Shown piece by piece: positions 5,937-21,906 of a DNA stretch of 64,000 nucleotides. The translations under genes were made by a program, and so were the position numbers. The stretch's first letter is position 1; the number at the start of each line of letters is the position of its first letter. Under the pieces are notes generated by a model. It saw only the letters and a list, made by a program, of their open reading frames with translations, did no database searches and had not been told where the DNA came from. The stretch covers positions 704,001-768,000 of the forward strand of contig CAVPJU010000006.1 in assembly GCA_963705505.1 (NCBI GenBank), written 5' to 3'. Source of the DNA: an uncultured bacterium. Its GTDB lineage: Bacteria; Desulfobacterota_D; UBA1144; Nemesobacterales; UBA2774.

Positions 5937-6561
5937 ATGGAACCGAATACCGAGGAGAGCAGGCAGGCATTCATACTGAATTTCTGGTTCGGCGATCTTA
6001 AGGAGGGAGATGTCCCTCCCGAAGAATTGAGCCGGATGTGGTGGGCAAAGGACGAAAAGACGGACGAATATATCAGGACTAATTTCGAATCCGACATTGC
6101 GGATGCAAAAGAAGGCAGGCTCCACGAATGGGAAAAGACTCCGCGCGGCACGCTCGCTCTCATAGTACTGCTCGACCAGTTCTCGAGGAATGTGTACAGG
6201 GACACGCCAGGGGCTTTTTCGCAGGATCGGCCAGGCATTGGAAATAGCCGTAAGCGGGATCGAAAAGGGGTTTGACAAGGAGCTCCATCCCATTGAAAGG
6301 GTGTTCTTCTATATGCCCTTCATGCACCGTGAGGATATCGATATGCAGAAGAGGTCGATAGCCCTGTTTGCGGCTTTAGAGAGGGGTTTCACTTCCCCTG
6401 CTGAACTTGCGGAAATGCTTTCTACCAACAGTGAATACGCCCGAAGGCACTATGCGATTATAGAGAGGTTCGGAAGGTACCCGCATAGGAATAAGATACT
6501 GGGTAGGGAATCGACGCCTGAGGAGGTCGAATTCTTGAAACAGCCGGGGTCATCTTTTTGA
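5937..6561 (+). pseudogene. DUF924-family protein split by a +1 frameshift near 6228-6232
   Basis: ILNFWF and LALIVLLDQFSRN in one frame, FFYMPFMH and IIERFGRYPHRN in the next; removing one base gives a 207-aa protein. Confidence 0.8.
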
Positions 6562-6592: not shown

Positions 6593-6970
6593 TCACTTTG
6601 GTTCGGCGTAATGAACGATTACCCTCTCGATTCTTCCCTCACTATCGAGGAACATGACCTCGGCGGCGAGCATCCCCTTTACGCTCCTATAATAGAGGGT
6701 AAGGCTCTTTACTCCCGTGAGTATATTTAACAGCTCGAATTTAAGGTCGGGATAGGCATCGAGCCCCTTTCTGAAATATGCCCTCAGCTTAATTTTTCCC
6801 TTGATTGTACCCGAGGCTTCCCCCATGAGTTTTTCGACGAAGGGGGAAGTGAATTCCACATCTTCTGCGTAGTGAGAGAGTATGGAATCGAGGTCATGCC
6901 TGTTCCATGCATCGATCCAATCCTTCGGCCATTTGTACGGGCTTCTTCCGAGGAAATCATAGAAATCCAT
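6593..6970 (-). CDS. SnoaL/NTF2-like family protein
   Basis: WIDAWNRHDLDSILSHYAEDVEFTSP motif. Confidence 0.8.
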   Translation of the reverse strand: MDFYDFLGRSPYKWPKDWIDAWNRHDLDSILSHYAEDVEFTSPFVEKLMGEASGTIKGKIKLRAYFRKGLDAYPDLKFELLNILTGVKSLTLYYRSVKGMLAAEVMFLDSEGRIERVIVHYAEPK

Positions 6971-7058
6971 TCTGGAGTCTCTTTTTAAAGCTTATTTGCC
7001 GAAACGCTCCGCGATATACTCCGGTTTGATATTAATTCTCACTCTGGCAGCGGTTGAG

Positions 7059-7466
7059 TTACTTTCCCTTGAGCTTAGCCTCAATCTTGCTGAGTACATA
7101 GCGCGACAGGCTCTCATCGCCGAATGTACCCACCCTTATCGATATGTCGGTCAGGTTATCTGTGACTCTTTTAAGCTGTATCTTTACGGTTTTATTGTCG
7201 GCTGTTTTCGATTCGAGCTCGGCCGAGACGTCGTCTTTTATCTTATTGACTACGAGGAACTGCAGATCATCGATTGCGGCGACAGTAGCCCCCCACGTTT
7301 TGTTAAGAGATGCTTCTTCAGTGGCTTTTAATTCGCCTTTTATATATGCTACCGTACCGGCTCCTGCTGCTGCCGCCCCGCCCACCGCTGCCGCCGCCAG
7401 GCACCCGGTCAATATGAACGGACATGCTGCCAGTAATAGTAAAATCAAGAGTTTCTGCTTTTTCAT
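7059..7466 (-). CDS. DUF3568-like lipoprotein
   Basis: Lipobox LTGC, AAAVGGAAAAGAG stretch, IRVGTFGDESLSR C-terminal motif. Confidence 0.75.
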   Translation of the reverse strand: MKKQKLLILLLLAACPFILTGCLAAAAVGGAAAAGAGTVAYIKGELKATEEASLNKTWGATVAAIDDLQFLVVNKIKDDVSAELESKTADNKTVKIQLKRVTDNLTDISIRVGTFGDESLSRYVLSKIEAKLKGK

Positions 7467-8037
7467 AACGTGCTTCCTCCGGTCTTCATGGTCTTAATAG
7501 ATTTGATTACGCGTAAGTCAATCAATTATATCCGGTGATAGTTGATTTTCGCAACTGGAATGTTCATTTGGCAAATATAACGCCGGCGGGCGTCGATCTT
7601 AATTATTACTGCGCCTCGGACAGGCGCATATACAAAGGGTCGAGCGGAGTCGGTCTCGGGAAAAAGAGCGTTTCCGAACAAAACCAGTCATATGACTGTC
7701 GTTATCGAGTTGTTGAATTATTACTCCCGCATTATTAGAATTGTAATATCACGGGGTAACAGCGGGGATTAAATTCGGATGGGAAATAATAAAGCAATGG
7801 TCTATTCAGGGGAACTGAGACATTCTGAAACTTTTTATGGGCATAATCGTATTTTTATAAAGAGGGACGGCATCGTTATCAGGGCGGATGACGGGGAGTG
7901 CATCGCTGCCCCGGTGGAAGGAATAATGAAGAATCCAAGGTCAAAATTGCGAAGCGCGCGAGAGCGGTCGGAAGGATGTTTCCGGACAGTGACTGTATAT
8001 CCGTTTTAAAAACTATGAATACACCTGACCTTCGAGC

Positions 8038-9891
8038 ATGGCATCGATAAACGAAGACTATCTAATACCGCTCGTTATAGGGGTGACCAGCCGGAAGGGT
8101 ACCGTTGCGGATGAAGAACGTCTGTCCGGACTCATAAGCGGAGAGATGGTCAGGCTCAGGAATACGTTTCCGAATTCTCCGTTCATTGTCATTTCTTCTC
8201 TTGCGGAGCGGGAGGAACGCCTCACCGCCAGGCTTGCGATCGAGCACCTGCGGGCGAGGCTCATAGCAATACTTCCGCAACCGCCCGAGCAATGTGTAAA
8301 TACGCTTCAGAACGATATTAACAGGGAGGACTTTTCACGAATTCTCGACCTGGCGGAGTCCTCACTCGATATCTCATCGCTGATGCAACTGAGGCTCGGT
8401 GTGAAAAGATACGATTTATTGGAAGACAGCGCGTTGAGGGAGAGCTTTACTGCCGCCTTTATTGCCGAGCATAGCGAGATTCTGTTCGCGATTTGTGCGG
8501 ATGAAACTGAGGGAGAGACAGACACGACCGCTCAGATTATTAACTGGATAAGGGAAGGCAGCATCACACGCGAATTCTCTTTGAGGGAGAGCAAAACAGG
8601 CCTGGATAATTTGGACAAAAGCATGATAATCTCAATAAATCCCATAACCTGCCTGACAGCGACTGAATCCGCCCCGCCCGAGGAAAATACAGAAGCGGCA
8701 AATGATGAATCCGGGGATCAAACGGGATTTATGCGTTCTATTCTCAGCAAGTTCTCCGGGAGTATCTTCGGGTTCGTCGAGAACGTGAGTGATTCTCTCG
8801 ATAACCTATATGATTATTATTTCAAGCATACGGCAGCCCAGGCGACGGATAAATATGAAAAATCGCCCTTCATAAATATAATAGAGAGGATCGACGGATT
8901 TAACCTCGATATCAGGAATTATTATGAGGGTCACGGTGAGCAAGAGCTCAATCAATCTAAAAAGTATTTACTCCAGAGTGAATCAGATAACGAGCTCATT
9001 TCGGATAATCCGACACTCCAAAGAATTATATCCCTTTACTCGGGCGCGGATGTTTTATCCCAGTACTATCAGAAAAAAACCTCGGGCCTCATAAACTGGA
9101 TCTACGCCCTCTTTTTAGTTGCCGTCTTGCTCTATGGACTGATCAATATGAGTTCTTATCTGGTCCTTTTCTACATAGGTTTAATACCCGCCATTGCCCT
9201 TCTGGTTAAAAAGAGTCTGAAAGACAGGGTGGAGGATCGGTTTCTCGACTACAGGGCCCTCGCGGAGGGGCTGCGCGTACAGGTCTTCTGGACGCTGTGC
9301 GGGATAAATGAGAACGTTTCATCCCACTACCTGAGCAAGTATGAGGGATTGCTGACCTGGATCAGGAAAGCGGTGAGGAGCATCGAGATTATGACGTTAA
9401 GAACGGACAGCGGAGATGGGCGGCGGGATAAATCCGCGCTGGTGGATATTACAAAAAGATTATGGATAGACTCGCAGCTCGATTATTTCAGGTCGAAGAG
9501 GAGACCGATTTTCATGAGGTCACGGCAGTTCGGGAATGTTGTATTTTTATCTTTTGTATTTACTCTTCTGACGGACGTCGTGTACGGCGCATACGTTCTG
9601 ATAGCCGGAGTCGACAACGGCAAAGCGATAAATGATTTTCAGATTCTCCTGGGCGTGATTGCCGCTGTCGGAGTTGCCGCCCAGGCATATAAAAATAAGA
9701 AGGCCTACGACGAGCTCGAGAGGAGGTACAGCCTGGCCCAGCAAATTTACGCCGCCGCGAAGAGGGAGCTCGAAATCGGCAAAGTGCCCGCGGAGAAGAT
9801 TCTCGTCGCGGTCGGCAGGGAAGCTTTGCTTGAGAACAGTGACTGGCTCTGGACTCACAGGAATGTTCCGATAGAGCTGCCCAAAGGATAG
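8038..9891 (+). CDS. SLOG-like (degenerate) plus tandem 2-TM SLATT-like membrane protein; paralog of the next gene
   Basis: LVIGVTSRK, SSLAERE and ILFAIC align with SLOG motifs; about four TM helices; RFLDYRALAEGLR, QLDYF and ENSDW shared with the neighbour. Confidence 0.65.
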   Translation: MASINEDYLIPLVIGVTSRKGTVADEERLSGLISGEMVRLRNTFPNSPFIVISSLAEREERLTARLAIEHLRARLIAILPQPPEQCVNTLQNDINREDFSRILDLAESSLDISSLMQLRLGVKRYDLLEDSALRESFTAAFIAEHSEILFAICADETEGETDTTAQIINWIREGSITREFSLRESKTGLDNLDKSMIISINPITCLTATESAPPEENTEAANDESGDQTGFMRSILSKFSGSIFGFVENVSDSLDNLYDYYFKHTAAQATDKYEKSPFINIIERIDGFNLDIRNYYEGHGEQELNQSKKYLLQSESDNELISDNPTLQRIISLYSGADVLSQYYQKKTSGLINWIYALFLVAVLLYGLINMSSYLVLFYIGLIPAIALLVKKSLKDRVEDRFLDYRALAEGLRVQVFWTLCGINENVSSHYLSKYEGLLTWIRKAVRSIEIMTLRTDSGDGRRDKSALVDITKRLWIDSQLDYFRSKRRPIFMRSRQFGNVVFLSFVFTLLTDVVYGAYVLIAGVDNGKAINDFQILLGVIAAVGVAAQAYKNKKAYDELERRYSLAQQIYAAAKRELEIGKVPAEKILVAVGREALLENSDWLWTHRNVPIELPKG

Positions 9892-9897
9892 AGTCTC

Positions 9898-11676
9898 ATG
9901 ACAAGCACAAATGAAATGAAATCCCCTCCTAAAGCCCGCCTCGCGGTCAGGGTCGGCGTTACGGGACACCGTCCCTCGGGACTTGATAAGGCCGATATGA
10001 AGGTACTCAGGACGCAGGCAGCGGAAGTTCTTAAACATATCAAGAGTGTTGCTAACGCAGTGAAGTTTTCCTTGTATTCCGACGGAGCGCCGCCTGTGCT
10101 GAGGATAGTGTCGCCACTTGCGGAGGGCGCCGATACGCTTGTTGCGGAAGAGGCCTTGAAAGAAGGGTATGAGCTCCAGTGCGCGCTCCCCTTCGACCGA
10201 TACGAGTATGAAAAGGATTTTTGGGACAGTGATTCCGTCAGAAGGTACCGGACTATGCTGGGGGAAGCTACCTCCATACTCGAGCTCGACGGTTCACGGG
10301 CGACTGAGGACCTCGAGAAGGAATCATATCAAACGGTCGGCCGGATGGTGCTCATGCAGAGCGACGTTCTTATTGCGATATGGGACGGCGAGGACGCAAA
10401 AGGGAAGGGGGGGACCGGGCAGATCGTGAATGAGTCGCACATACACGAAATCCCCGTCGTCTGGATAAATTCTAATGCCCCGCACGAGGTCAAGGTGCTG
10501 ATGGGGGAGGAATACGGGAGGCAAATTGAAGTGCGCCTCCCGGACCTCGAGATCCGCTTGAAGAGGGTCCTTCAGCCTCCCGCCGCGAAAAAGCCCGACC
10601 TCAGCAGGACCTACTTTTCCGAAAGGCAGCCATCGTGGACGTGGGGATTTATATTCGAGACATTCTGCGATATTTTCTCGGGCGAAAGGATAGAGACCAG
10701 AGGCGTCAAGGTCAGGAATTTCGTGGAAGAAACCGAAGAAGAATGGCGGAGAGTCTGGGATTCATGCCCGGATTTTCCGCAATCGGTCAAGGACCAGATC
10801 AACGATAAATTCCTCGGGCATTACAGCTGGGCGGACAAGCTCGCCAATTATTATTCAAACATTTACAGGAGCTCATTCGTGGCTAATTACCTGATGGCCG
10901 GTCTGGCGGTATTCTTCGCCCTCCTCACTCCGACCGTACGGAGTCTGGAGACACTCTGGATAATCTGCGAGCTCGCTCTGATCATACTCATAATACTGAT
11001 AACAGGCATCGGCAACCTGAAGCGCTGGCACGAGAGGTGGATAGACTACAGGCTCCTCTCGGAGCAGCTCAGGCAGCTCAGGTTTCTTACACCGCTCGGC
11101 CTCACGACGCCGGCATTCAGGGTGCCTGCCCACGATACTTACGGCGATCCCAGGAGCACGTGGGTGAACTGGCATTTCCGGGCGATTGTCCGGGAAGCGG
11201 GCATGGTCGGAGCGAAGATCGACGGGGAGTACCTGAAATCCTACAGGGATTTCTTATCGCAGCAGGAGATTACTGCGCAGATTAAATACCATGAATACAA
11301 CGCCCCCCGCTTTCATACGATCCATAACGTACTGCATATAATAGGCACCGGTCTATTCGTACTTACGCTCATTGCGAGTTTGGCTCATTTATATGTGCAC
11401 AACGACTGGCTGACTCTCTTTACGGCTGTCTTCCCCGCATTGGGCGCAGCGTTTTACGGTATCCGGACACAGGGGGAATTCGAGCAGATAGCAAAGAAAT
11501 CCGAAGCGATGGGCGCTCAGCTGGACAATCTCAGGGACGAGCTGCTTAAAACGGATTTCGTCCCGTCATACGGCGTGCTGGGCAACATTGCGGAAAGTAC
11601 CGCGGAGATCATGTCGTCGGAGACTCTCGACTGGAGAATAGTATTTCAATCCAAGCGGTTAGTGTTGCCTGGGTAG
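9898..11676 (+). CDS. SLOG domain plus tandem 2-TM SLATT-like (DUF4231-like) membrane protein
   Basis: VGVTGHR, SPLAEGAD and LIAIWDG..GKGGTGQIV SLOG motifs; four TM helices; RWIDYRLLSEQLR, QIKYH, ETLDW. Confidence 0.75.
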   Translation: MTSTNEMKSPPKARLAVRVGVTGHRPSGLDKADMKVLRTQAAEVLKHIKSVANAVKFSLYSDGAPPVLRIVSPLAEGADTLVAEEALKEGYELQCALPFDRYEYEKDFWDSDSVRRYRTMLGEATSILELDGSRATEDLEKESYQTVGRMVLMQSDVLIAIWDGEDAKGKGGTGQIVNESHIHEIPVVWINSNAPHEVKVLMGEEYGRQIEVRLPDLEIRLKRVLQPPAAKKPDLSRTYFSERQPSWTWGFIFETFCDIFSGERIETRGVKVRNFVEETEEEWRRVWDSCPDFPQSVKDQINDKFLGHYSWADKLANYYSNIYRSSFVANYLMAGLAVFFALLTPTVRSLETLWIICELALIILIILITGIGNLKRWHERWIDYRLLSEQLRQLRFLTPLGLTTPAFRVPAHDTYGDPRSTWVNWHFRAIVREAGMVGAKIDGEYLKSYRDFLSQQEITAQIKYHEYNAPRFHTIHNVLHIIGTGLFVLTLIASLAHLYVHNDWLTLFTAVFPALGAAFYGIRTQGEFEQIAKKSEAMGAQLDNLRDELLKTDFVPSYGVLGNIAESTAEIMSSETLDWRIVFQSKRLVLPG

Positions 11677-11730
11677 TCAATCACAGCTATAATCCTTCAG
11701 TATTTCCTCGGGAGGAGAGGGGGAAAACGC

Positions 11731-13074
11731 ATGGCTCACGATGTTTTTATCAGTCACTCTGCGAAAGATAAACCGATAGCCGACGCCGTATGCGCTACTC
11801 TTGAAAAAGGAGGCGTCAGATGCTGGATCGCCCCGAGGGATATCGTTCCCGGTACCCAGTGGGGGGAGGCGATCATTGATGCGATCAGCTCGTGCCGGGT
11901 TATGGTGCTCGTGTTTTCAGCCAACGCCAATGAATCCCAGCAAATTATACGGGAAGTCGAGCGCGCGGTCAGTAAGGGGGTACCGGTTATCCCTTTCAGG
12001 GTGGAGGACGTCGACCCCAATAAGTCCCTCGAATATTTTATAAGCGCTCCTCACTGGTTAGACGCTCTGACACCGCCTCTCGAGAAACACCTGGAACAGC
12101 TACTATCTACTATAAAGCTTCTGCTGACGAGAAAAGGAGCGCGCGCCGAGCCGACGCCCGATAAGGATACCCCCGGGTTAGAGACAATAAGGCCGCTCGA
12201 TACAAAGGGATATGTGCCGAAAAAGTCCTTTCTGGATAGTCTGGATGCAAAGAAAGTCGGGGGCGGCATAGTCGCTCTAATTATCATAGTCGCAGCCGTG
12301 TATTTCCTTTCCGGGGGCGGCAAGGATAATAATACAAATAACGATTCAAATAAGAATTCAAATAATAATAGCTCTCAAAATGTAGTACCGCCTGCACCTA
12401 CCAACTATAATCCTCCCGTTTATAAGACGTCTCCTCCGGGACCCCACGACAACGAGGGGACATGGGGAGCGATCTCCATCGCCCCTAGCGGCGGATGGGG
12501 TTTTTCTACTAATATGACCTCGAAACAGGCGGCCGAGCAGGACGCTATCGAAAGATGCAGTCAGTTCAACACGGGTTGCGAGGTGAGGGTCGCATTCAAC
12601 TCCTGCGCTGTCTATGCAACAGCGCCAGACGGGTCATACGGCTGGGCAACCAATACGACCGTTGACCTGGCGAGGAATAACGCGGTCACTGAATGTCATA
12701 AATACACGAGTGAAACATGCAGCTCGTTCATTGAGTTATGCTCGGACGGAAGCGTGAAGACAGTGAACGTATGGGCGGCCATAGCCACAGCCGATAACGG
12801 GCAATACGGAGTTTCATGGAACTATCCTACGCGTAGTCAGGCGGAGAAAGCGTCTATTGATGAGTGCACAAAATACGGGCCCAACTGTCAGATGAGGATT
12901 TCCTTCACCGACTGCGGCGCGGTAGCGCGGAGTGAGGACGGTGCTCTCGGTTGGGGGTACTATTCCGATATGAATGAAGCGGTAAAGGCGGCAATTGAGG
13001 AGTGTGACGGCCGAAGTGAGAAAAAATGCAGCATCCTTACTCAGCTGTGCGCCGACGGAAGCCAGAAGAAATAA
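11731..13074 (+). CDS. TIR domain, single TM, tandem DUF4189-like Cys-rich repeat protein
   Basis: DVFISHS, CWIAPRDI.PG and SQQIIREVERA (E75); KK then TM at aa 176-193; Asn/Pro linker; two approximately 103-aa repeats with 6 Cys each. Confidence 0.85.
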   Translation: MAHDVFISHSAKDKPIADAVCATLEKGGVRCWIAPRDIVPGTQWGEAIIDAISSCRVMVLVFSANANESQQIIREVERAVSKGVPVIPFRVEDVDPNKSLEYFISAPHWLDALTPPLEKHLEQLLSTIKLLLTRKGARAEPTPDKDTPGLETIRPLDTKGYVPKKSFLDSLDAKKVGGGIVALIIIVAAVYFLSGGGKDNNTNNDSNKNSNNNSSQNVVPPAPTNYNPPVYKTSPPGPHDNEGTWGAISIAPSGGWGFSTNMTSKQAAEQDAIERCSQFNTGCEVRVAFNSCAVYATAPDGSYGWATNTTVDLARNNAVTECHKYTSETCSSFIELCSDGSVKTVNVWAAIATADNGQYGVSWNYPTRSQAEKASIDECTKYGPNCQMRISFTDCGAVARSEDGALGWGYYSDMNEAVKAAIEECDGRSEKKCSILTQLCADGSQKK

Positions 13075-13094: not shown

Positions 13095-13967
13095 TCAATT
13101 GCCCGATTCTTTAAAGGACTCTTCTTCCATGACGACTTCGGGTGAGCTGCGGCCGTTCTCAAACCCCTCGTACCTGACCCATCTGTGCGGGGGCGCAACT
13201 CTAAACCAGAAATATGTCTTCGGAAAAAAGACTTTAAATATATTGAGCACGCCTAATTTGGGCACGAGCTCAACTTTGTAGCACTCTATTTCGCCGTCAG
13301 GCGTATTGATTTTCTCGATTCCCCTCTGTTTGAGCTCGATATTGTAAAGATCGGGCTCGTTTGTAAGGAATTGAGCTTTGACAGTATCATCCGTACCGAA
13401 CGGGAGCGAGCGGAGGGCCAGAACGATCCCCTCAACGAACAAAACGTTCCGGTCTGTCTCGTATGTCTTGTTCGCCGACCTGCCGCTTTCAAAATCCTGT
13501 CTTACGAATGACACTGTTCCGGTAGAGTCATCTACGGTTTTCCTTTCCGTCATAACTACTTTGCCCCGCATATCTTTAACCTCGGTTGAGGATTCAACTG
13601 GTGTGAATGCGGATCCGGCCTTCCACACCGATACGGTCTCCCATCTCATATCCCTCGTAAATGGGTTAGTAATTCCCTGCCCTTTCAGTGTGAGTCTTAC
13701 CGTGGTTTCTCCGTTGTCTGTGAATTTTTCGGTCGTCCAGTCCGCTTTCCATCTGGTCCCGCCCCCCTTGTAAGTGGTGACCATGGAGCCTTCCTCTCTT
13801 TTGCCAATAGGAGGTGTGCTAATCGGGTGTGCCGGCAGCGGGGTTACCAGGACTGTTAAAAGAAAGAAGGGAAATAATAGAAATGCATTTTTATGGGATA
13901 TACCGTAATTAGTCCTGCACCAGCTTCCGGCAAGTGAAGCTATTCTCCAAAATGTTTGCTTATACAT
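13095..13967 (-). CDS. Exported beta-rich protein, DUF3108-like (start uncertain)
   Basis: Hydrophobic signal-like segment; EKINTPDGEIECYKVEL and YFWF...WVRYE C-terminal pattern. Confidence 0.55.
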   Translation of the reverse strand: MYKQTFWRIASLAGSWCRTNYGISHKNAFLLFPFFLLTVLVTPLPAHPISTPPIGKREEGSMVTTYKGGGTRWKADWTTEKFTDNGETTVRLTLKGQGITNPFTRDMRWETVSVWKAGSAFTPVESSTEVKDMRGKVVMTERKTVDDSTGTVSFVRQDFESGRSANKTYETDRNVLFVEGIVLALRSLPFGTDDTVKAQFLTNEPDLYNIELKQRGIEKINTPDGEIECYKVELVPKLGVLNIFKVFFPKTYFWFRVAPPHRWVRYEGFENGRSSPEVVMEEESFKESGN

Positions 13968-14162
13968 CTATACGAGTTCTCGTAATCTCAGTTGTGTTGT
14001 TACTCAGTCAAAAATAGTACCATGTAAATTAATAATATGGTCGATTAACCGTGAAAAGTTCTTCGGGCAGTAATTCTTCAAGTCTCGATTATAATGAACT
14101 ATTCATTTGAAGATGGATCCGATCCGTTAAAGATCCGCAGCATTGAAAGTATTGCAGGAGTT

Positions 14163-14300
14163 GATGCCGCCCTTGTCGAGACCCCTTTTAAACCACCTTG
14201 CCCTCCGCTCCGAGCTGCCGTGAGTGAATGAGTCCGGGGTTACGTAGCCCCGTGATTCCATTTGAAGACGGTCGTCTCCTACGCTGCTTGCGCCAGTATC
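14163..14300 (-). ncRNA. Candidate structured ncRNA, possibly 6S (ssrS)-like; strand uncertain
   Basis: GC-rich island in an AT-rich intergenic region; long imperfect rod; minus strand has CGCAAGC near the 5' end, CATTCAC and terminal GGCGGCATC, as I recall from E. coli 6S. Confidence 0.4.
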
Positions 14301-14344
14301 TACACGTATGTATTTTCAGAAAGAACGTGTAATATTTATGCCAA

Positions 14345-15013
14345 ATGGACAAGAATGCTCTTTTCTCCTGGAGCGGCGGCAAGGACAGCGCGCTCGCTCT
14401 CTATGAAATTCTGAGAGGCCGTGAGTATGAAGTTAGAGCGCTCTTCACGACGGTTACGGGGGACTATGACAGGGTCAGTATGCACGGCTTGAGGCGTGCT
14501 CTCCTCGAAGATCAAACGGACTCGCTCGGGCTTCCTCTCGAGAAGGTAATAATATCCCGAAATGCATCGAACGAGGATTACGAGTCCGCTCTCGAGAAGC
14601 TGCTTCTGGCGTATAAAGAGTCCGGTGTGAGTTCCGTGATATACGGCGACATATTCCTTGAGGAGATAAGGAAGTACCGCGAGGATCATTTGGGTAAAAT
14701 AGGGCTCAGGTGCGTGTTTCCTATCTGGAGTATAGATTCAGTCCATCTTGCCCGGACGTTCATCGAAGCGGGTTTTAAAGCCGTTACTGTTTGCGTCGAT
14801 TCAAAGGTTCTCGACGGGAGCTTCGCCGGAAGGGAATACGACCAAGATTTCTTATCCGACTTGCCGCTGGGGATAGACCCCTGCGGGGAAAACGGCGAGT
14901 TCCATACTTTCGTATATGACGGACCGATATTCAGGAAAAGGATTGAATTTGACAGGGGAGAGGTTGTGCTGAGGGATAACCGTTTTTATTTCTGCGATCT
15001 CGTGCCGCGCTGA
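14345..15013 (+). CDS. Diphthine-ammonia ligase-like (MJ0570/Dph6 family) PP-loop ATPase
   Basis: SWSGGKDS, GDIFL and DPCGENGEFHTFV. Confidence 0.9.
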   Translation: MDKNALFSWSGGKDSALALYEILRGREYEVRALFTTVTGDYDRVSMHGLRRALLEDQTDSLGLPLEKVIISRNASNEDYESALEKLLLAYKESGVSSVIYGDIFLEEIRKYREDHLGKIGLRCVFPIWSIDSVHLARTFIEAGFKAVTVCVDSKVLDGSFAGREYDQDFLSDLPLGIDPCGENGEFHTFVYDGPIFRKRIEFDRGEVVLRDNRFYFCDLVPR

Positions 15014-18925: not shown

Positions 18926-20077
18926 CTAAGCCATTTCTTCTTTACTCGATACAAGCCTGTCGAGGATCTCTCTCTGTATGCCTTCGATCTCTTCCCTGGC
19001 TTTCTTGATTTCCTCGGTGGGCTTTCCCCTTTCCCTGCATTCTTCGACAAGCTCCTCCAGCTTCGCCCCTATGTGCTTTAATTTTGTCTGCGCTTCGATA
19101 TTGGCTTTTATGAGCATTTCCTCGCTCTCCCATTCTCGCTTCGAATACGCATCGAGCTCTTTTGCCTGTATGAGCAGCTCCCTGAGACGGTCCCTCCAGC
19201 CGTGGAGAGATTGGTGTATAACCGACTGGACCTCGGTTTTCTCGCCGGGGTCTCTCCAGAGAACATTCTCCAGAAAGCGCAGGTCCTCCTCCGAGACCTC
19301 GCTCCTCCCCTCAAGATATGCCCTGGCTTTAAGGAGCGAAACCGATTGCTTGTACCTTCTGTCGGAGGGGATTATCCCCTTTTTCCTGAGATCTTTTCTT
19401 ATCCGCGATATAAGCTTCAACATATTGGGAGGCAGTTTTACTTTCTCCGTTTCGGTTTTGCATGTGTTGAGCTCATCAGCCGTTATTACTCCTTCGTCGG
19501 ATTTGTCGGCTTCAGTGTTAAGCATCTTCAGGAACCTGAAATCTTCTCTTATATAATCCACTACGTATCTCAGCAGGAACCTGTCGTAGAGCGCTTCGAG
19601 CTCGTCTTCCTCGGACGGCAGCTCGTTGCTCGCGCCGAAAAGAGAAATCAGGGGTATCTTTACCTTTTCCGTTCCGTTGTAAAAAATTCTCTCGTTCATG
19701 ATGGTGAGCAGGGTGTTGAGTATAGAGGAGCTGGCTTTAAATACCTCGTCCAGAAATGCGATGTGGGCCTCGGGCAGCTTCCCGGCTGTCACCCTTCTGT
19801 ATTCGTCGTTCTCGAGCCCTCTCAGGCTTACCGCTCCGAATAACTCCTCCGGTGTGGTGAACTTGGTGAGAAGCCACTGAAAATATTGGGCCCCCGCGAT
19901 CTTACGGCATAGCTCGTTTGCGAGCTGGGACTTGGCCGTGCCGGGCGGACCGATAAGAAGGAGGTGGCTTCCGGTAAGGAGAGCACAGAACGCCCCGTCG
20001 ATGACATCATCCCTTTCCAGATACCGCGTCTTCAGATCGGTTCTGATCTTCTTTAGTTTTTCTAGAATTCTTTCCAT
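18926..20077 (-). CDS. RavA/MoxR-family AAA+ ATPase
   Basis: GPPGTAKS Walker A, FTTPEELFG, FLDEVFKA, GASNELP, ALYDRF. Confidence 0.9.
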   Translation of the reverse strand: MERILEKLKKIRTDLKTRYLERDDVIDGAFCALLTGSHLLLIGPPGTAKSQLANELCRKIAGAQYFQWLLTKFTTPEELFGAVSLRGLENDEYRRVTAGKLPEAHIAFLDEVFKASSSILNTLLTIMNERIFYNGTEKVKIPLISLFGASNELPSEEDELEALYDRFLLRYVVDYIREDFRFLKMLNTEADKSDEGVITADELNTCKTETEKVKLPPNMLKLISRIRKDLRKKGIIPSDRRYKQSVSLLKARAYLEGRSEVSEEDLRFLENVLWRDPGEKTEVQSVIHQSLHGWRDRLRELLIQAKELDAYSKREWESEEMLIKANIEAQTKLKHIGAKLEELVEECRERGKPTEEIKKAREEIEGIQREILDRLVSSKEEMA

Positions 20078-21174
20078 GTCACTATATCCACTATGACGTC
20101 CTGGTCGCGCCTGGTTTTTTTAATCACGGCTTCGATAACCCTCTTTGTGGGGCTAGCTTCCCCCAGGCTGCCAACGGATCTAACGGAAAATATTTCGCTT
20201 TCTCCGCTGTTGAGGGTAACGCCGACAAGGCCGGCGTTCACTGTTGACTCAGGGTCGATGTTTCTTGCTATTTCTCTCGCCTTTTGCTGGTCGATCACCG
20301 GCGTTTCTTTTCTTGCTTCAATGACTTGATCTGCGATTTGCTCAGCCACGTCGTCGTCGACCTCATCTTCGGAGGAGCTTCCCTGCCCTCCGATCGCCGA
20401 TACGGCTGAGCCTTTAATGGCGGCCATTATCACTACCTTCGGGGCCGTGCTGAAATTAATTTTCTTATCGTGAGGATAGACCGTAACGTAATCCTTTATC
20501 CGGTTGTAGAATTCATCGTCCATGCCGTCGACCATTCGTATCTCCTGAAGTGTATCGAGATGGCCGTCCTTGATCCTGTAAGGATTCTCGAGGCCGGCAT
20601 AGAACTCTCCGTTTGCTCCCGCGGGGTCCTGATCGTTTTCCGCGCCCTGGATAGGTGCGTCTATCCAGTTAATCAGGCTCGAAATGAACCTCTCGGATTT
20701 ATTACTGTCTACATCAAGGAACTTGAAAAGCTCTCTTATTTCCGTAAGCACCTGCTGATCCACCTTGTTTGTCGACGTGTTTACCAGCGCATTAAGGTTT
20801 ATCTTGGACCTTTCGTCGGTCACCGTGACCGAGACGTTCCCGTCACCGACCGGGAAATAGGGCACGCTGATAGCCCAGAGGCCTTCGGAGTTCTGCGCTT
20901 GCCCGCCCATGGCGGCCGTAATCTCGGTGAGCTCTTCGAGCGGTCTTTCCTTAAGTGTGCCGGCTGCGACATGCACTCCCGATTTGGCTATATACCGGGC
21001 TTTGATTTCATCCCGCGTATTTGACGATATCTCCGTATCTATCTGGGTAAAATAGATCAGGTCCGTGACGAGTATCATGAGGATCGCTATGACGATGATC
21101 ACTATGACCAGAACGATCCCTTTTTCCGAATTTCTGTTTCTTGGAGCGCATGTAAAAAGCATTCTTTTTTTCAT
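20062..21174 (-). CDS. gspK: Type II secretion minor pseudopilin K
   Basis: G/IVLVIV prepilin site, DERSKINLN, KINFSTAP. Confidence 0.9.
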   Translation of the reverse strand: MKKRMLFTCAPRNRNSEKGIVLVIVIIVIAILMILVTDLIYFTQIDTEISSNTRDEIKARYIAKSGVHVAAGTLKERPLEELTEITAAMGGQAQNSEGLWAISVPYFPVGDGNVSVTVTDERSKINLNALVNTSTNKVDQQVLTEIRELFKFLDVDSNKSERFISSLINWIDAPIQGAENDQDPAGANGEFYAGLENPYRIKDGHLDTLQEIRMVDGMDDEFYNRIKDYVTVYPHDKKINFSTAPKVVIMAAIKGSAVSAIGGQGSSSEDEVDDDVAEQIADQVIEARKETPVIDQQKAREIARNIDPESTVNAGLVGVTLNSGESEIFSVRSVGSLGEASPTKRVIEAVIKKTRRDQDVIVDIVTWKEF

Positions 21175-21222
21175 GGTTTCGAGGTTGTCTATTGATCCAT
21201 TTATATCGAGAGCATAACCATT

Positions 21223-21906
21223 TTAATTGACGACCGGTATCGTCACCGTCGTGTTGAATACGATATTCTCACCCCTGGGATTTCGCATAATCAGATTTAC
21301 ATTCACAGCGATCGGCAGGGATAATGTTTCGTTCGAATTCCATTCGCTTGCAGACTCCTGCGTTACACCGTCAACAGGACTATTTGCAACGTATGTAAGG
21401 TTGAAACCCACTACTCTTTCCGATAGCGCATATTGAGTCCCCCCTGTCTCGGGTTCTAAGGTAGGGTTGTCCCTTCTGATGAGTGCGAAGAGGTCCGAAT
21501 CCTGGACCGGCTCGAGAAAGTAGCTTATTAGCGTCTGATCTGATTCCCTCGAATTTTGTGTAGGGGTACGAGATAAGGATGTGAAGACCAGCTTGCTGTG
21601 GTCTCCTTCCTTGACCCCGAAAAAAAAGGGTGTTGTGATGTTCGTTGTCTGCGAGTTAACTAATCCCCGGGGAAATGCCGTCGTAAGGTCGTTAGTTATC
21701 TTCGAAATTACGACCCTTGCCTCGTGATAGAGATCAAGCTCTTCTTCTATCCTGTCTTTCGCCTTCGTTATCTGAAAGAATGAAGCATAGAGCACTGTAA
21801 GGACGATGGATCCGATAAATACCGCAAGCAGCACTTCGATGAGGGTAAACCCTCTATCCGTGGTTTGAAATCGCCGTAGCAACTGTGAACTCCTTATTTC
21901 CTTCAT
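21223..21906 (-). CDS. gspJ: Type II secretion minor pseudopilin J
   Basis: GFTLIEVL prepilin motif; position in the operon. Confidence 0.8.

Follow-up and report, generated by a model that had tools for sequence, protein, structure and literature searches.

The 64,000-nucleotide stretch of DNA analyzed here (the window) comes from an uncultured bacterium of the Desulfobacterota_D (contig CAVPJU010000006.1, positions 704,001 to 768,000), whose genome measures 2.88 Mb and is 93.6% complete. The subject of the analysis is an operon of three genes, two of which encode paralogous SLOG-SLATT membrane proteins and the third a membrane-anchored TIR protein. In the list of open reading frames (ORFs) all three lie on the + strand, with gaps of 6 bp between genes 1 and 2 and 54 bp between genes 2 and 3, exactly as given in a preliminary description that had placed three co-oriented genes among unrelated neighbors. 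The features assigned to them, including the transmembrane (TM) segments and the regions modeled with AlphaFold2 (AF2), were as follows, with the basis of each in parentheses:

8038-9891, + strand: gene 1, 617 aa; degenerate SLOG-like N-terminal domain, an insert, and two 2-TM SLATT-like modules (ORF, hhalign)
8056-8652, + strand: gene 1 N-terminal domain, aa 7-205; SLOG-like, pocket motifs lost (family alignment, SLOG profile)
9088-9681, + strand: gene 1 membrane region, hydrophobic segments at aa 351-369, 372-390, 504-522, and 530-548 (Kyte-Doolittle)
9898-11676, + strand: gene 2, 592 aa; putative SLOG sensor domain and two SLATT/DUF4231 2-TM modules (ORF, full-length AF2 model)
9931-10587, + strand: gene 2 SLOG domain, aa 12-230; YpsA/DprA-like branch (AF2, Foldseek, VIA-align)
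10816-11088, + strand: gene 2 first SLATT/DUF4231 module, aa 307-397; TM segments 326-344 and 353-371 (NCBIfam, Pfam, Kyte-Doolittle)
11269-11625, + strand: gene 2 second SLATT module, aa 458-576; TM segments 478-496 and 504-522 (matches below cut-off, AF2 helix pattern, Kyte-Doolittle)
11731-13074, + strand: gene 3, 447 aa; cytoplasmic TIR domain, one TM helix, two periplasmic DUF4189 domains (ORF, Pfam)
11734-12102, + strand: gene 3 TIR domain, aa 2-124; candidate catalytic Glu75 at 11953-11955 (Pfam TIR_2, alignment)
12256-12312, + strand: gene 3 single TM helix, aa 176-194, followed by an Asn/Pro-rich linker (Kyte-Doolittle score 2.49)
12463-13050, + strand: gene 3 DUF4189 domains, at 12463-12741 and 12772-13050 (PF13827)

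The AF2 model of full-length gene 2 had a pLDDT of 88.8 and a pTM of 0.88, and that of the N-terminal domain, built on 32 relatives, had a pLDDT of 93. The modeled N-terminal domain has a clear SLOG fold, a Rossmann-like three-layer alpha/beta arrangement, in agreement with the preliminary assignment. In Foldseek its best match was YpsA (2nx2; E 4.4e-7, probability 1.00), followed by DprA, ShosA, LOG, and the MoCo carrier protein. Comparison with 48,161 chains by VIA-align gave YpsA at Z 17.1 (root-mean-square deviation 2.5, 158 aligned), DprA at Z 14.0, ShosA at Z 11.6, and LOG-type proteins at Z 9 to 10; TRPM2 was found at Z 8.3 (8sr7) and 7.3 (7aov), and the SLOG domain of BcThsA with 3' cyclic ADP-ribose (3'cADPR; 7uxs) at Z 7.7. 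Leads at the sequence level were a tblastn match to a gene annotated DUF1273 (E 1e-8) and atlas scores of 0.80 to 0.84 to YpsA clusters.

Within an alignment of 24 sequences, the residues invariant in the gene 2 SLOG domain were G20, G23, H24, and R25; S72, A75, E76, G77, and D79; and G171 and G172. In the AF2 model these occupy the loops after strands 16-23 and 67-72, with G171/G172 before helix 173-182. According to the accessible part of one report, loops after strands are where SLOG-class domains contact nucleotides (PMC9503650). The pocket motifs of gene 2 read GVTGHR, LAEGAD, WDG, and GGT, and the TGHR motif singled out earlier is real and invariant in the gene 2 family.

In the membrane half, the first SLATT module was matched by NCBIfam SLATT_1 (E 1.7e-16, 60.3 bits; cut-off 41) and by Pfam DUF4231 (27.7 bits; cut-off 24.7), both above cut-off, which bears out the SLATT/DUF4231 assignment of the preliminary description. 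The matches of the second module, to Pfam SLATT_1 (E 0.0019) and SLATT_4 (E 0.0061) and to NCBIfam SLATT_4 (E 7.8e-8), were all under the curated cut-offs. The four hydrophobic segments of gene 2 formed two repeated helix units in the full-length model, and DUF4231 was matched by 21 of the 24 family members. Foldseek with the full-length model returned credible matches for the SLOG part only, the SLATT half being without a match among solved structures. Searched against PDB sequences, the gene 2 profile gave nothing meaningful (best E 0.02, to gp41), and none of the gene 2 relatives was found in phage records.

Gene 1 is a full-length homolog of gene 2. The direct BLASTP match was weak (E 1e-4, 25% over 170 aa), and comparison of the two families by hhalign, with a 34-sequence gene 1 alignment, gave a probability of 100 and an E value of 2.7e-52 over 542 columns. 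Across the whole genome, the gene 2 SLOG profile matched genes 2 (E 1e-91) and 1 (E 3.2e-6) only. These two results make genes 1 and 2 paralogs of one architecture that belong to two sister families; the paralogy had been proposed from the outset, as had about four TM helices for each protein, and four hydrophobic segments were found in each. Taken alone, gene 1 matched SLATT models at E values of 0.0037 to 0.07, under the curated cut-offs; within its family, SLATT_1 and SLATT_3 were each matched by 16/34 members.

The pocket of gene 1 has decayed: GVTSRK, LAEREE, CAD, and DTT stand where gene 2 has its four motifs, and GHR, EGxD, WDG, and GxT were each present in 0/15 sequences comprising gene 1 and its 14 clade orthologs, which also have an insert of ~90 residues. 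The motifs persist in distant gene 1 family members (GHR in 14/19, EGxD in 18/19, WDG-like in 19/19, and GxT in 18/19). The gene 1 N-terminal domain has also changed more quickly than the gene 2 SLOG domain, with 29% versus 54% identity to the orthologs in the related locus L004. The membrane region is the best-conserved part of gene 1, with 80, 76, and 59% identity to L010, L002, and L004, respectively, the corresponding membrane-half identity of gene 2 to its L004 ortholog being 67%. This conservation after motif loss suggests that the membrane part carries function. Because the SLOG motifs were lost in 15/15 clade sequences, gene 1 does not appear to be an equal second sensor subunit. The two-subunit effector envisaged earlier should be regarded as putative. 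Complex prediction for gene 1 aa 300-617 with gene 2 aa 285-592 gave a score of 0.27, the mark being 0.32.

The TIR domain of gene 3 was matched by TIR_2 over aa 5-124 (E 7.7e-23, 81.7 bits; cut-off 28). It appears to be of the catalytic type, with the candidate catalytic residue present: at the column of Glu75, for which that role had been suggested, Glu was found in 45 of the 51 TIR domains aligned from loci of the gene 2 family. Cleavage or cyclization of NAD+ is predicted. The spacing between Glu75 and Ser63 is presumably that of PdTIR; the alignment made here ended at residue 66. Identity of the TIR domain within the clade was 87 to 95%. Four Lys residues precede the single TM helix and the translation begins without a signal peptide, which places the TIR domain inside the cell and the Cys-rich domains outside. 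Both DUF4189 (PF13827) matches exceeded the cut-off (E 4.3e-20 and 1.9e-21; whole-protein E 3.1e-40). Twelve Cys residues follow the TM helix, which fits six per DUF4189 domain, and DUF4189 is described in the available text of a preprint as a periplasmic fold with three disulfides (bioRxiv 10.64898/2026.05.09.723464). The order of TIR, TM helix, and Cys-rich repeats read from the sequence beforehand was thus recovered in full. As a separate observation, the TIR part of gene 3 (window 11731-12135) was 65 to 77% identical to TIRs of other phyla (P0264 to P0360), the rest of each protein being unrelated.

Gene 3 alone in the genome was matched by TIR_2, and no DUF4189 domain was matched outside it. 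Within the phylum, a gene-1-type protein was found in 15 of 120 genomes (8/9 in genus g1, 3/3 in g7, 1/1 in g8, and 2/3 in g16) and in none of the other genera, and genes 1 and 2 were adjacent in 11/14 phylum loci examined. Two order-level relatives carry a single gene of family B, the gene 1 sister family, with motifs intact; in one of them, G015, this gene directly follows a 650-aa TIR gene. In the locus L115 (G013:C126, ~6936-7789), the family-B SLOG-SLATT gene of a third order-level relative was in fragments, with an in-frame TGA.

At E ≤ 0.001 the gene 2 profile retrieved 11,636 cluster representatives, of which 3,658 remained at E ≤ 1e-30. A locus set was made from the best 80 of 562 gene 2 relatives (one genome per species) with 6-kb flanks, and the TIR genes in it were counted with an iterated TIR model. 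In 46/80 loci, from several phyla, a total of 56 TIR ORFs lay within 6 kb of the gene 2 homolog; 42 of these loci had a TIR ORF no more than 3 kb away, and 19 had one on the same strand at a distance of ≤300 bp. For eight further loci, the protein directly downstream fell in the BLAST cluster of a TIR-FGE-sulfatase protein and is a probable divergent TIR; two of these eight proteins were scanned and gave TIR_2 matches below threshold. The three-gene arrangement is therefore beyond chance, as the sole TIR adjoins the sole SLOG-profile genes and the linkage to a TIR recurs in 46 genomes of the 80. The co-occurrence proposed as a check in the preliminary description was accordingly found both between genes 1 and 2 and between gene 2 relatives and TIRs.

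A hydrophobic segment followed the TIR domain in 43/56 associated TIR ORFs, with exactly one such segment in 36. The C-terminal domains of these proteins varied and included DUF4189, TPR, WD40/PD40, FGE-sulfatase, BNR/sortilin, PDZ, CHASE2, LVIVD, SPOR, and AAA_35; SIR2-TIR and DUF4062-TIR fusions were also among the TIRs at gene-2-family loci. Judged by sequence comparison, the conservation of the gene 3 TIR across phyla appears unusually strong for a bacterial TIR. Of the candidates scored in a search with gene 3, 4,889 proteins reached E ≤ 0.001. In the independent NCBI annotation of a Caballeronia plasmid, TIR and WD40 proteins come, in that order, after a DUF4231 protein. In some Acidobacteriota (L006:6968-10804, L007:7859-12962, and L015:231-5907), the gene 2 homolog was flanked by a SIR2-TIR fusion and a large nSTAND1-TPR NTPase, a context that is conflict-system-like.

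The second commonest neighbor of gene 2 homologs, present in 22/75 loci, carries an RyR domain (6/7 scanned), often preceded by two N-terminal TM segments and TrkA_N (4/7 scanned). Neighbors of this 2TM-TrkA_N/RCK-RyR form were seen at L021:7851-9821, L030:7802-9835, L009:4144-5943, L013:5398-7209, and 18 more loci. RyR-only proteins of ~100 aa were found directly upstream of gene 2 homologs at L016:5656-5982 and in L026, L053, and L069. The K+ selectivity-filter motif was absent in 22/22 TrkA_N-RyR neighbors, and they were therefore not called K+ channels. RyR-domain proteins bind or cleave 2' and 3' cADPR, according to the accessible part of a 2026 preprint, and the RyR neighbors may for that reason be second effectors or signal-clearing parts.

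The operon is preceded by genes for superoxide dismutase, a sigma-70 factor, class II ribonucleotide reductase (RNR), DUF924, a SnoaL-like protein, and a DUF3568 lipoprotein, all unrelated to it, and is followed by a convergent DUF3108 gene and genes for a Dph6-like ATP pyrophosphatase, a methyltransferase, and a thioesterase. Its G+C content (0.46 to 0.54) is similar to that of the flanks. The order of genes 1, 2, and 3 was the same in the relatives L001 to L004 and L010. Of these, L002, L004, and L010 keep the series RNR-DUF924-SnoaL-DUF3568-gene 1-gene 2-gene 3-DUF3108, then the Dph6-like and methyltransferase genes, which indicates that the operon is a stable chromosomal feature of the clade and not part of a mobile island. 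Scans of the window for tRNA genes and Rfam families gave no match. Promoter-like sites (11 versus 6.2 ± 2.5 in shuffled sequences) and terminator-like sites (7 versus 5.6 ± 2.7) showed no excess.

Several further observations were made around the operon. The 571-bp space 5' of gene 1 (7467-8037) holds a 76-aa ORF without a family match (7779-8009) and one promoter-like site (7713-7741); Rfam gave no match there. In relatives, a sodium:dicarboxylate symporter gene (409 aa) and a 285-aa gene lie between the DUF3108 and Dph6-like genes (L002:7909-10041, L010:10195-12330); the window (13967-14345) is without them, and an indel therefore lies beside the operon. The DUF924 gene is split: ORFs 5937-6275 and 6190-6561 overlap, lie in different frames, and each match half of the Pfam model, and the L010 ortholog is a single 207-aa ORF; the frameshift (5937-6561) would thus reflect a pseudogene or an assembly error. 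On the - strand at 18926-21906, a bpMoxR AAA+ ATPase gene, of the MoxR type of MoxR-vWA-beta-propeller ternary systems, adjoins type II secretion system K/J-like pseudopilin genes.

On this evidence, the operon is reasonably likely to be a TIR-based second-messenger system of the Thoeris kind, arranged as an outside-in membrane circuit whose mechanism we infer as follows. A periplasmic ligand would act on the DUF4189 domains of gene 3 and bring the TIR domains together. The assembled TIRs would turn NAD+ into an ADP-ribose (ADPR)-derived nucleotide, for example a cADPR isomer, which the YpsA-like SLOG domain of gene 2 would bind. Nucleotide-bound gene 2 would then switch its two SLATT modules to a permeabilizing or ion-conducting state, the outcome of which would be growth arrest or cell death. 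Gene 1, its pocket decayed, would act as a non-sensing partner, possibly in direct contact with gene 2. Two reports predict that SLATT acts in the membrane as an effector under the control of a nucleotide or ADPR-derivative signal (PMC7159879, PMC9503650). The output of the circuit may be defense or physiological signaling. What the analysis itself establishes is the domain content, the folds, the conserved residues, the membrane topology, and the gene linkage. The preliminary description, which had proposed a generator, a sensor, and an effector of this kind, was largely right on domains and logic, its mechanism being unproven.

Several results weigh against this interpretation. With the iterated model, no TIR was found within 6 kb in 34/80 loci, where some contigs end early. 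In structure, the gene 2 SLOG domain has its nearest counterparts in YpsA and DprA (Z 17 and 14), the cADPR-binding SLOG of ThsA being much more distant (Z 7.7), and no Pfam or NCBIfam SLOG model matched the N-terminal 230 aa of gene 2 at E ≤ 1, the Pfam count being 0/24 family members. PADLOC gave no system-level match; genes 1 and 2 had weak matches to 2TM and 4TM effectors (E 0.0021 and 0.015), and gene 3 matched only partial TIR models. The part assigned to gene 1, that of a non-sensing structural or regulatory partner of gene 2, is pure inference. No tRNA or mobile genes were in view around the operon and no defense genes were nearby; a defense-island reading of the locus was ruled out by the housekeeping flanks and the conserved synteny. 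Given those flanks, the synteny, and the high within-clade conservation of the TIR domain, a stable signaling role fits at least as well as phage defense.

A broader proposal, possible if on balance doubtful, is that gene 3 and its thousands of relatives are transmembrane TIR receptors that sense ligands outside the cytoplasm with swappable outer domains, here DUF4189, whose one studied member binds VirB5 at the tip of an attacking type IV secretion system, and that pass an NAD-derived messenger to a SLOG-gated SLATT channel composed of a sensing (gene 2) and a non-sensing (gene 1) subunit. Were this true, the operon would represent an envelope-surveillance or cell-contact pathway, distinct from the cytoplasmic phage sensing of known Thoeris systems, and a prokaryotic counterpart of Toll-like receptors and ADPR-gated TRPM2 channels.

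The signal could also run the other way, with the gene 3 TIR an effector that depletes NAD+ and the SLOG-SLATT proteins upstream sensors or unrelated. TIRs deplete NAD+ in CBASS, Pycsar, and pAgo contexts. A recent preprint likewise describes, in its accessible part, some bacterial TIRs as NAD+-depleting effectors (10.64898/2025.12.03.692087), and the catalytic Glu that such a role would use is present in gene 3. This is nevertheless rather unlikely, as the variable and mostly extracytoplasmic domains that sit on the TIR protein make it look like a sensor, and its partner combines what is, from alignment and model, a ligand-binding-type SLOG domain of invariant pocket with a membrane module; the RyR-domain neighbors, moreover, point to a diffusible cADPR-type signal.

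It is quite unlikely that the SLOG domain is instead an enzyme, such as a LOG-like N-glycosidase, that makes a base or nucleotide signal or degrades the TIR product, with SLATT an anchor only. The best structural matches, YpsA and DprA, are non-catalytic or DNA-binding, accounts of SLATT consistently present it as an effector and not an anchor, and the constraint on the gene 1 membrane half after motif loss suggests function in the membrane part. The enzymatic alternative draws on the presence of LOG enzymes among the structural matches (Z 9 to 10), on the family-invariant His-Arg and Glu-Gly-x-Asp, and on the proposal, in the accessible text of one report, that some SLOG domains cleave ribosyl-adenine bonds (PMC9503650).

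The stable chromosomal site among housekeeping genes, the absence of defense genes nearby, and the very strong conservation of the TIR domain would all suit a housekeeping device for the envelope or for ion homeostasis that uses no nucleotide signal, its TIR being an adaptor that recruits both membrane proteins. TIR domains serve as protein-protein adaptors in animal Toll-like receptor signaling. This explanation is considered very unlikely, since it leaves aside the conserved catalytic Glu (45/51), the invariant pocket residues of the gene 2 SLOG domain, and the co-occurrence of the family with RyR domains that handle cADPR and with SIR2-TIR and nSTAND proteins. That the three genes are neighbors by chance, without joint function, is hardly credible, even with promoter- and terminator-like sites no more frequent than in shuffled sequence, given the 6- and 54-bp gaps, the sole TIR adjoining the sole SLOG-SLATT genes in 2.88 Mb, the common gene order in L001 to L004 and L010, and the linkage to a TIR in 46/80 genomes.

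The locus is one member of a very large and unnamed family pair, a protein with one SLOG and two SLATT modules (SLOG-2xSLATT), usually annotated only as "DUF4231," and a highly conserved TIR domain on single-pass proteins with interchangeable outer domains. To our knowledge, all Thoeris systems characterized so far have soluble TIRs that sense infection inside the cell; the outside-in circuit favored here, if true, would extend TIR/cADPR-type signaling to sensing at the cell envelope. It would also offer a testable case of direct gating of a membrane module by a SLOG domain, the principle on which eukaryotic TRPM2 is designed, and the decayed pocket of gene 1 would be a natural experiment on effector assembly. 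The frequent RyR neighbors tie the gene 2 family to the handling of cADPR isomers by RyR domains, as far as the accessible part of the RyR preprint describes it.

Among known systems, the combination of these domains was foreseen. Burroughs et al. are said to have predicted, in Nucleic Acids Research in 2015, SLOG-SLATT and TIR associations in which a nucleotide signal, a SLOG sensor, and a pore-type SLATT effector act together, and Pfam reflects earlier prediction in calling SLATT the "SMODS and SLOG-associating 2TM effector domain." The operon resembles type I Thoeris (ThsB with the SIR2-SLOG protein ThsA, signal 3'cADPR) in having a TIR generator and a SLOG sensor. It differs in that the output domain is SLATT, not SIR2, and in that the gene 2 SLOG is nearer to YpsA/DprA; the Pfam scan found no SIR2 in genes 1 to 3, and PADLOC gave no ThsA match and only a partial ThsB1 match (E 6.9e-4).

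TRPM2 is gated by ADPR. It and related TRPM channels are alike gene 2 in joining an N-terminal SLOG-like domain to a membrane ion-conducting part, but the membrane domains are unrelated (6-TM TRP versus 2x2-TM SLATT), so that the likeness is one of design rather than of family membership. With animal Toll-like receptors, gene 3 shares an ectodomain, a single TM helix, and a cytoplasmic TIR domain; its order is reversed, with the TIR N-terminal, and its catalytic Glu is kept, so that an enzyme rather than an adaptor is expected. The periplasmic part of gene 3 has the same three-disulfide fold as XAC2611/Tpf of Xanthomonas citri, a DUF4189 protein that, in the accessible text of its description, binds VirB5 of an antibacterial type IV secretion system (10.64898/2026.05.09.723464). 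XAC2611 is described there as soluble, with 164 aa and a signal peptide, whereas in gene 3 a TM helix links two DUF4189 domains to a TIR domain in the cytoplasm.

Of the systems known, type VII Thoeris comes closest; in it, operons of a TIR gene (ThsB) and a SLATT gene (ThsH) defend against phage via canonical cADPR, according to the accessible part of the preprint (Yirmiya et al., 10.64898/2025.12.03.692087). Common to both is a TIR gene adjoining the gene for a SLATT membrane protein, with a TIR-made ADPR-derived nucleotide expected to activate an effector that breaches the membrane. In ThsH, ligand pockets lie between SLATT protomers, and that part of the preprint makes no mention of SLOG (10.64898/2025.12.03.692087). 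The gene 2 effector is set apart from it, by description only, as a protein of ~600 aa with a YpsA-like SLOG domain and two SLATT modules; the operon has in addition a second paralog with a decayed pocket, a TIR that is membrane-anchored and bears periplasmic DUF4189, and a location outside a defense island. The survey of Yirmiya et al., as described in the same portion of the preprint, kept only TIR clusters enriched beside known defense genes (10.64898/2025.12.03.692087), a selection that may have left out families like that of gene 2.

The earlier statement that no characterized system had this architecture consequently held in part. The pairing of TIR and SLATT is of a kind already known, since type VII Thoeris has been characterized and named, at least in the available account. 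A literature description of a SLOG-2xSLATT effector with a membrane-anchored TIR was not found, and the 29 putative types of Yirmiya et al. may include such systems; in the accessible literature we could not find described the fusion of a YpsA-like SLOG domain with tandem SLATT modules, the paralog with a decayed pocket, or a single-pass TIR generator facing the periplasm. With these distinguishing parts, the operon is most likely a variant of the Thoeris-type signaling that bacteria use in defense.

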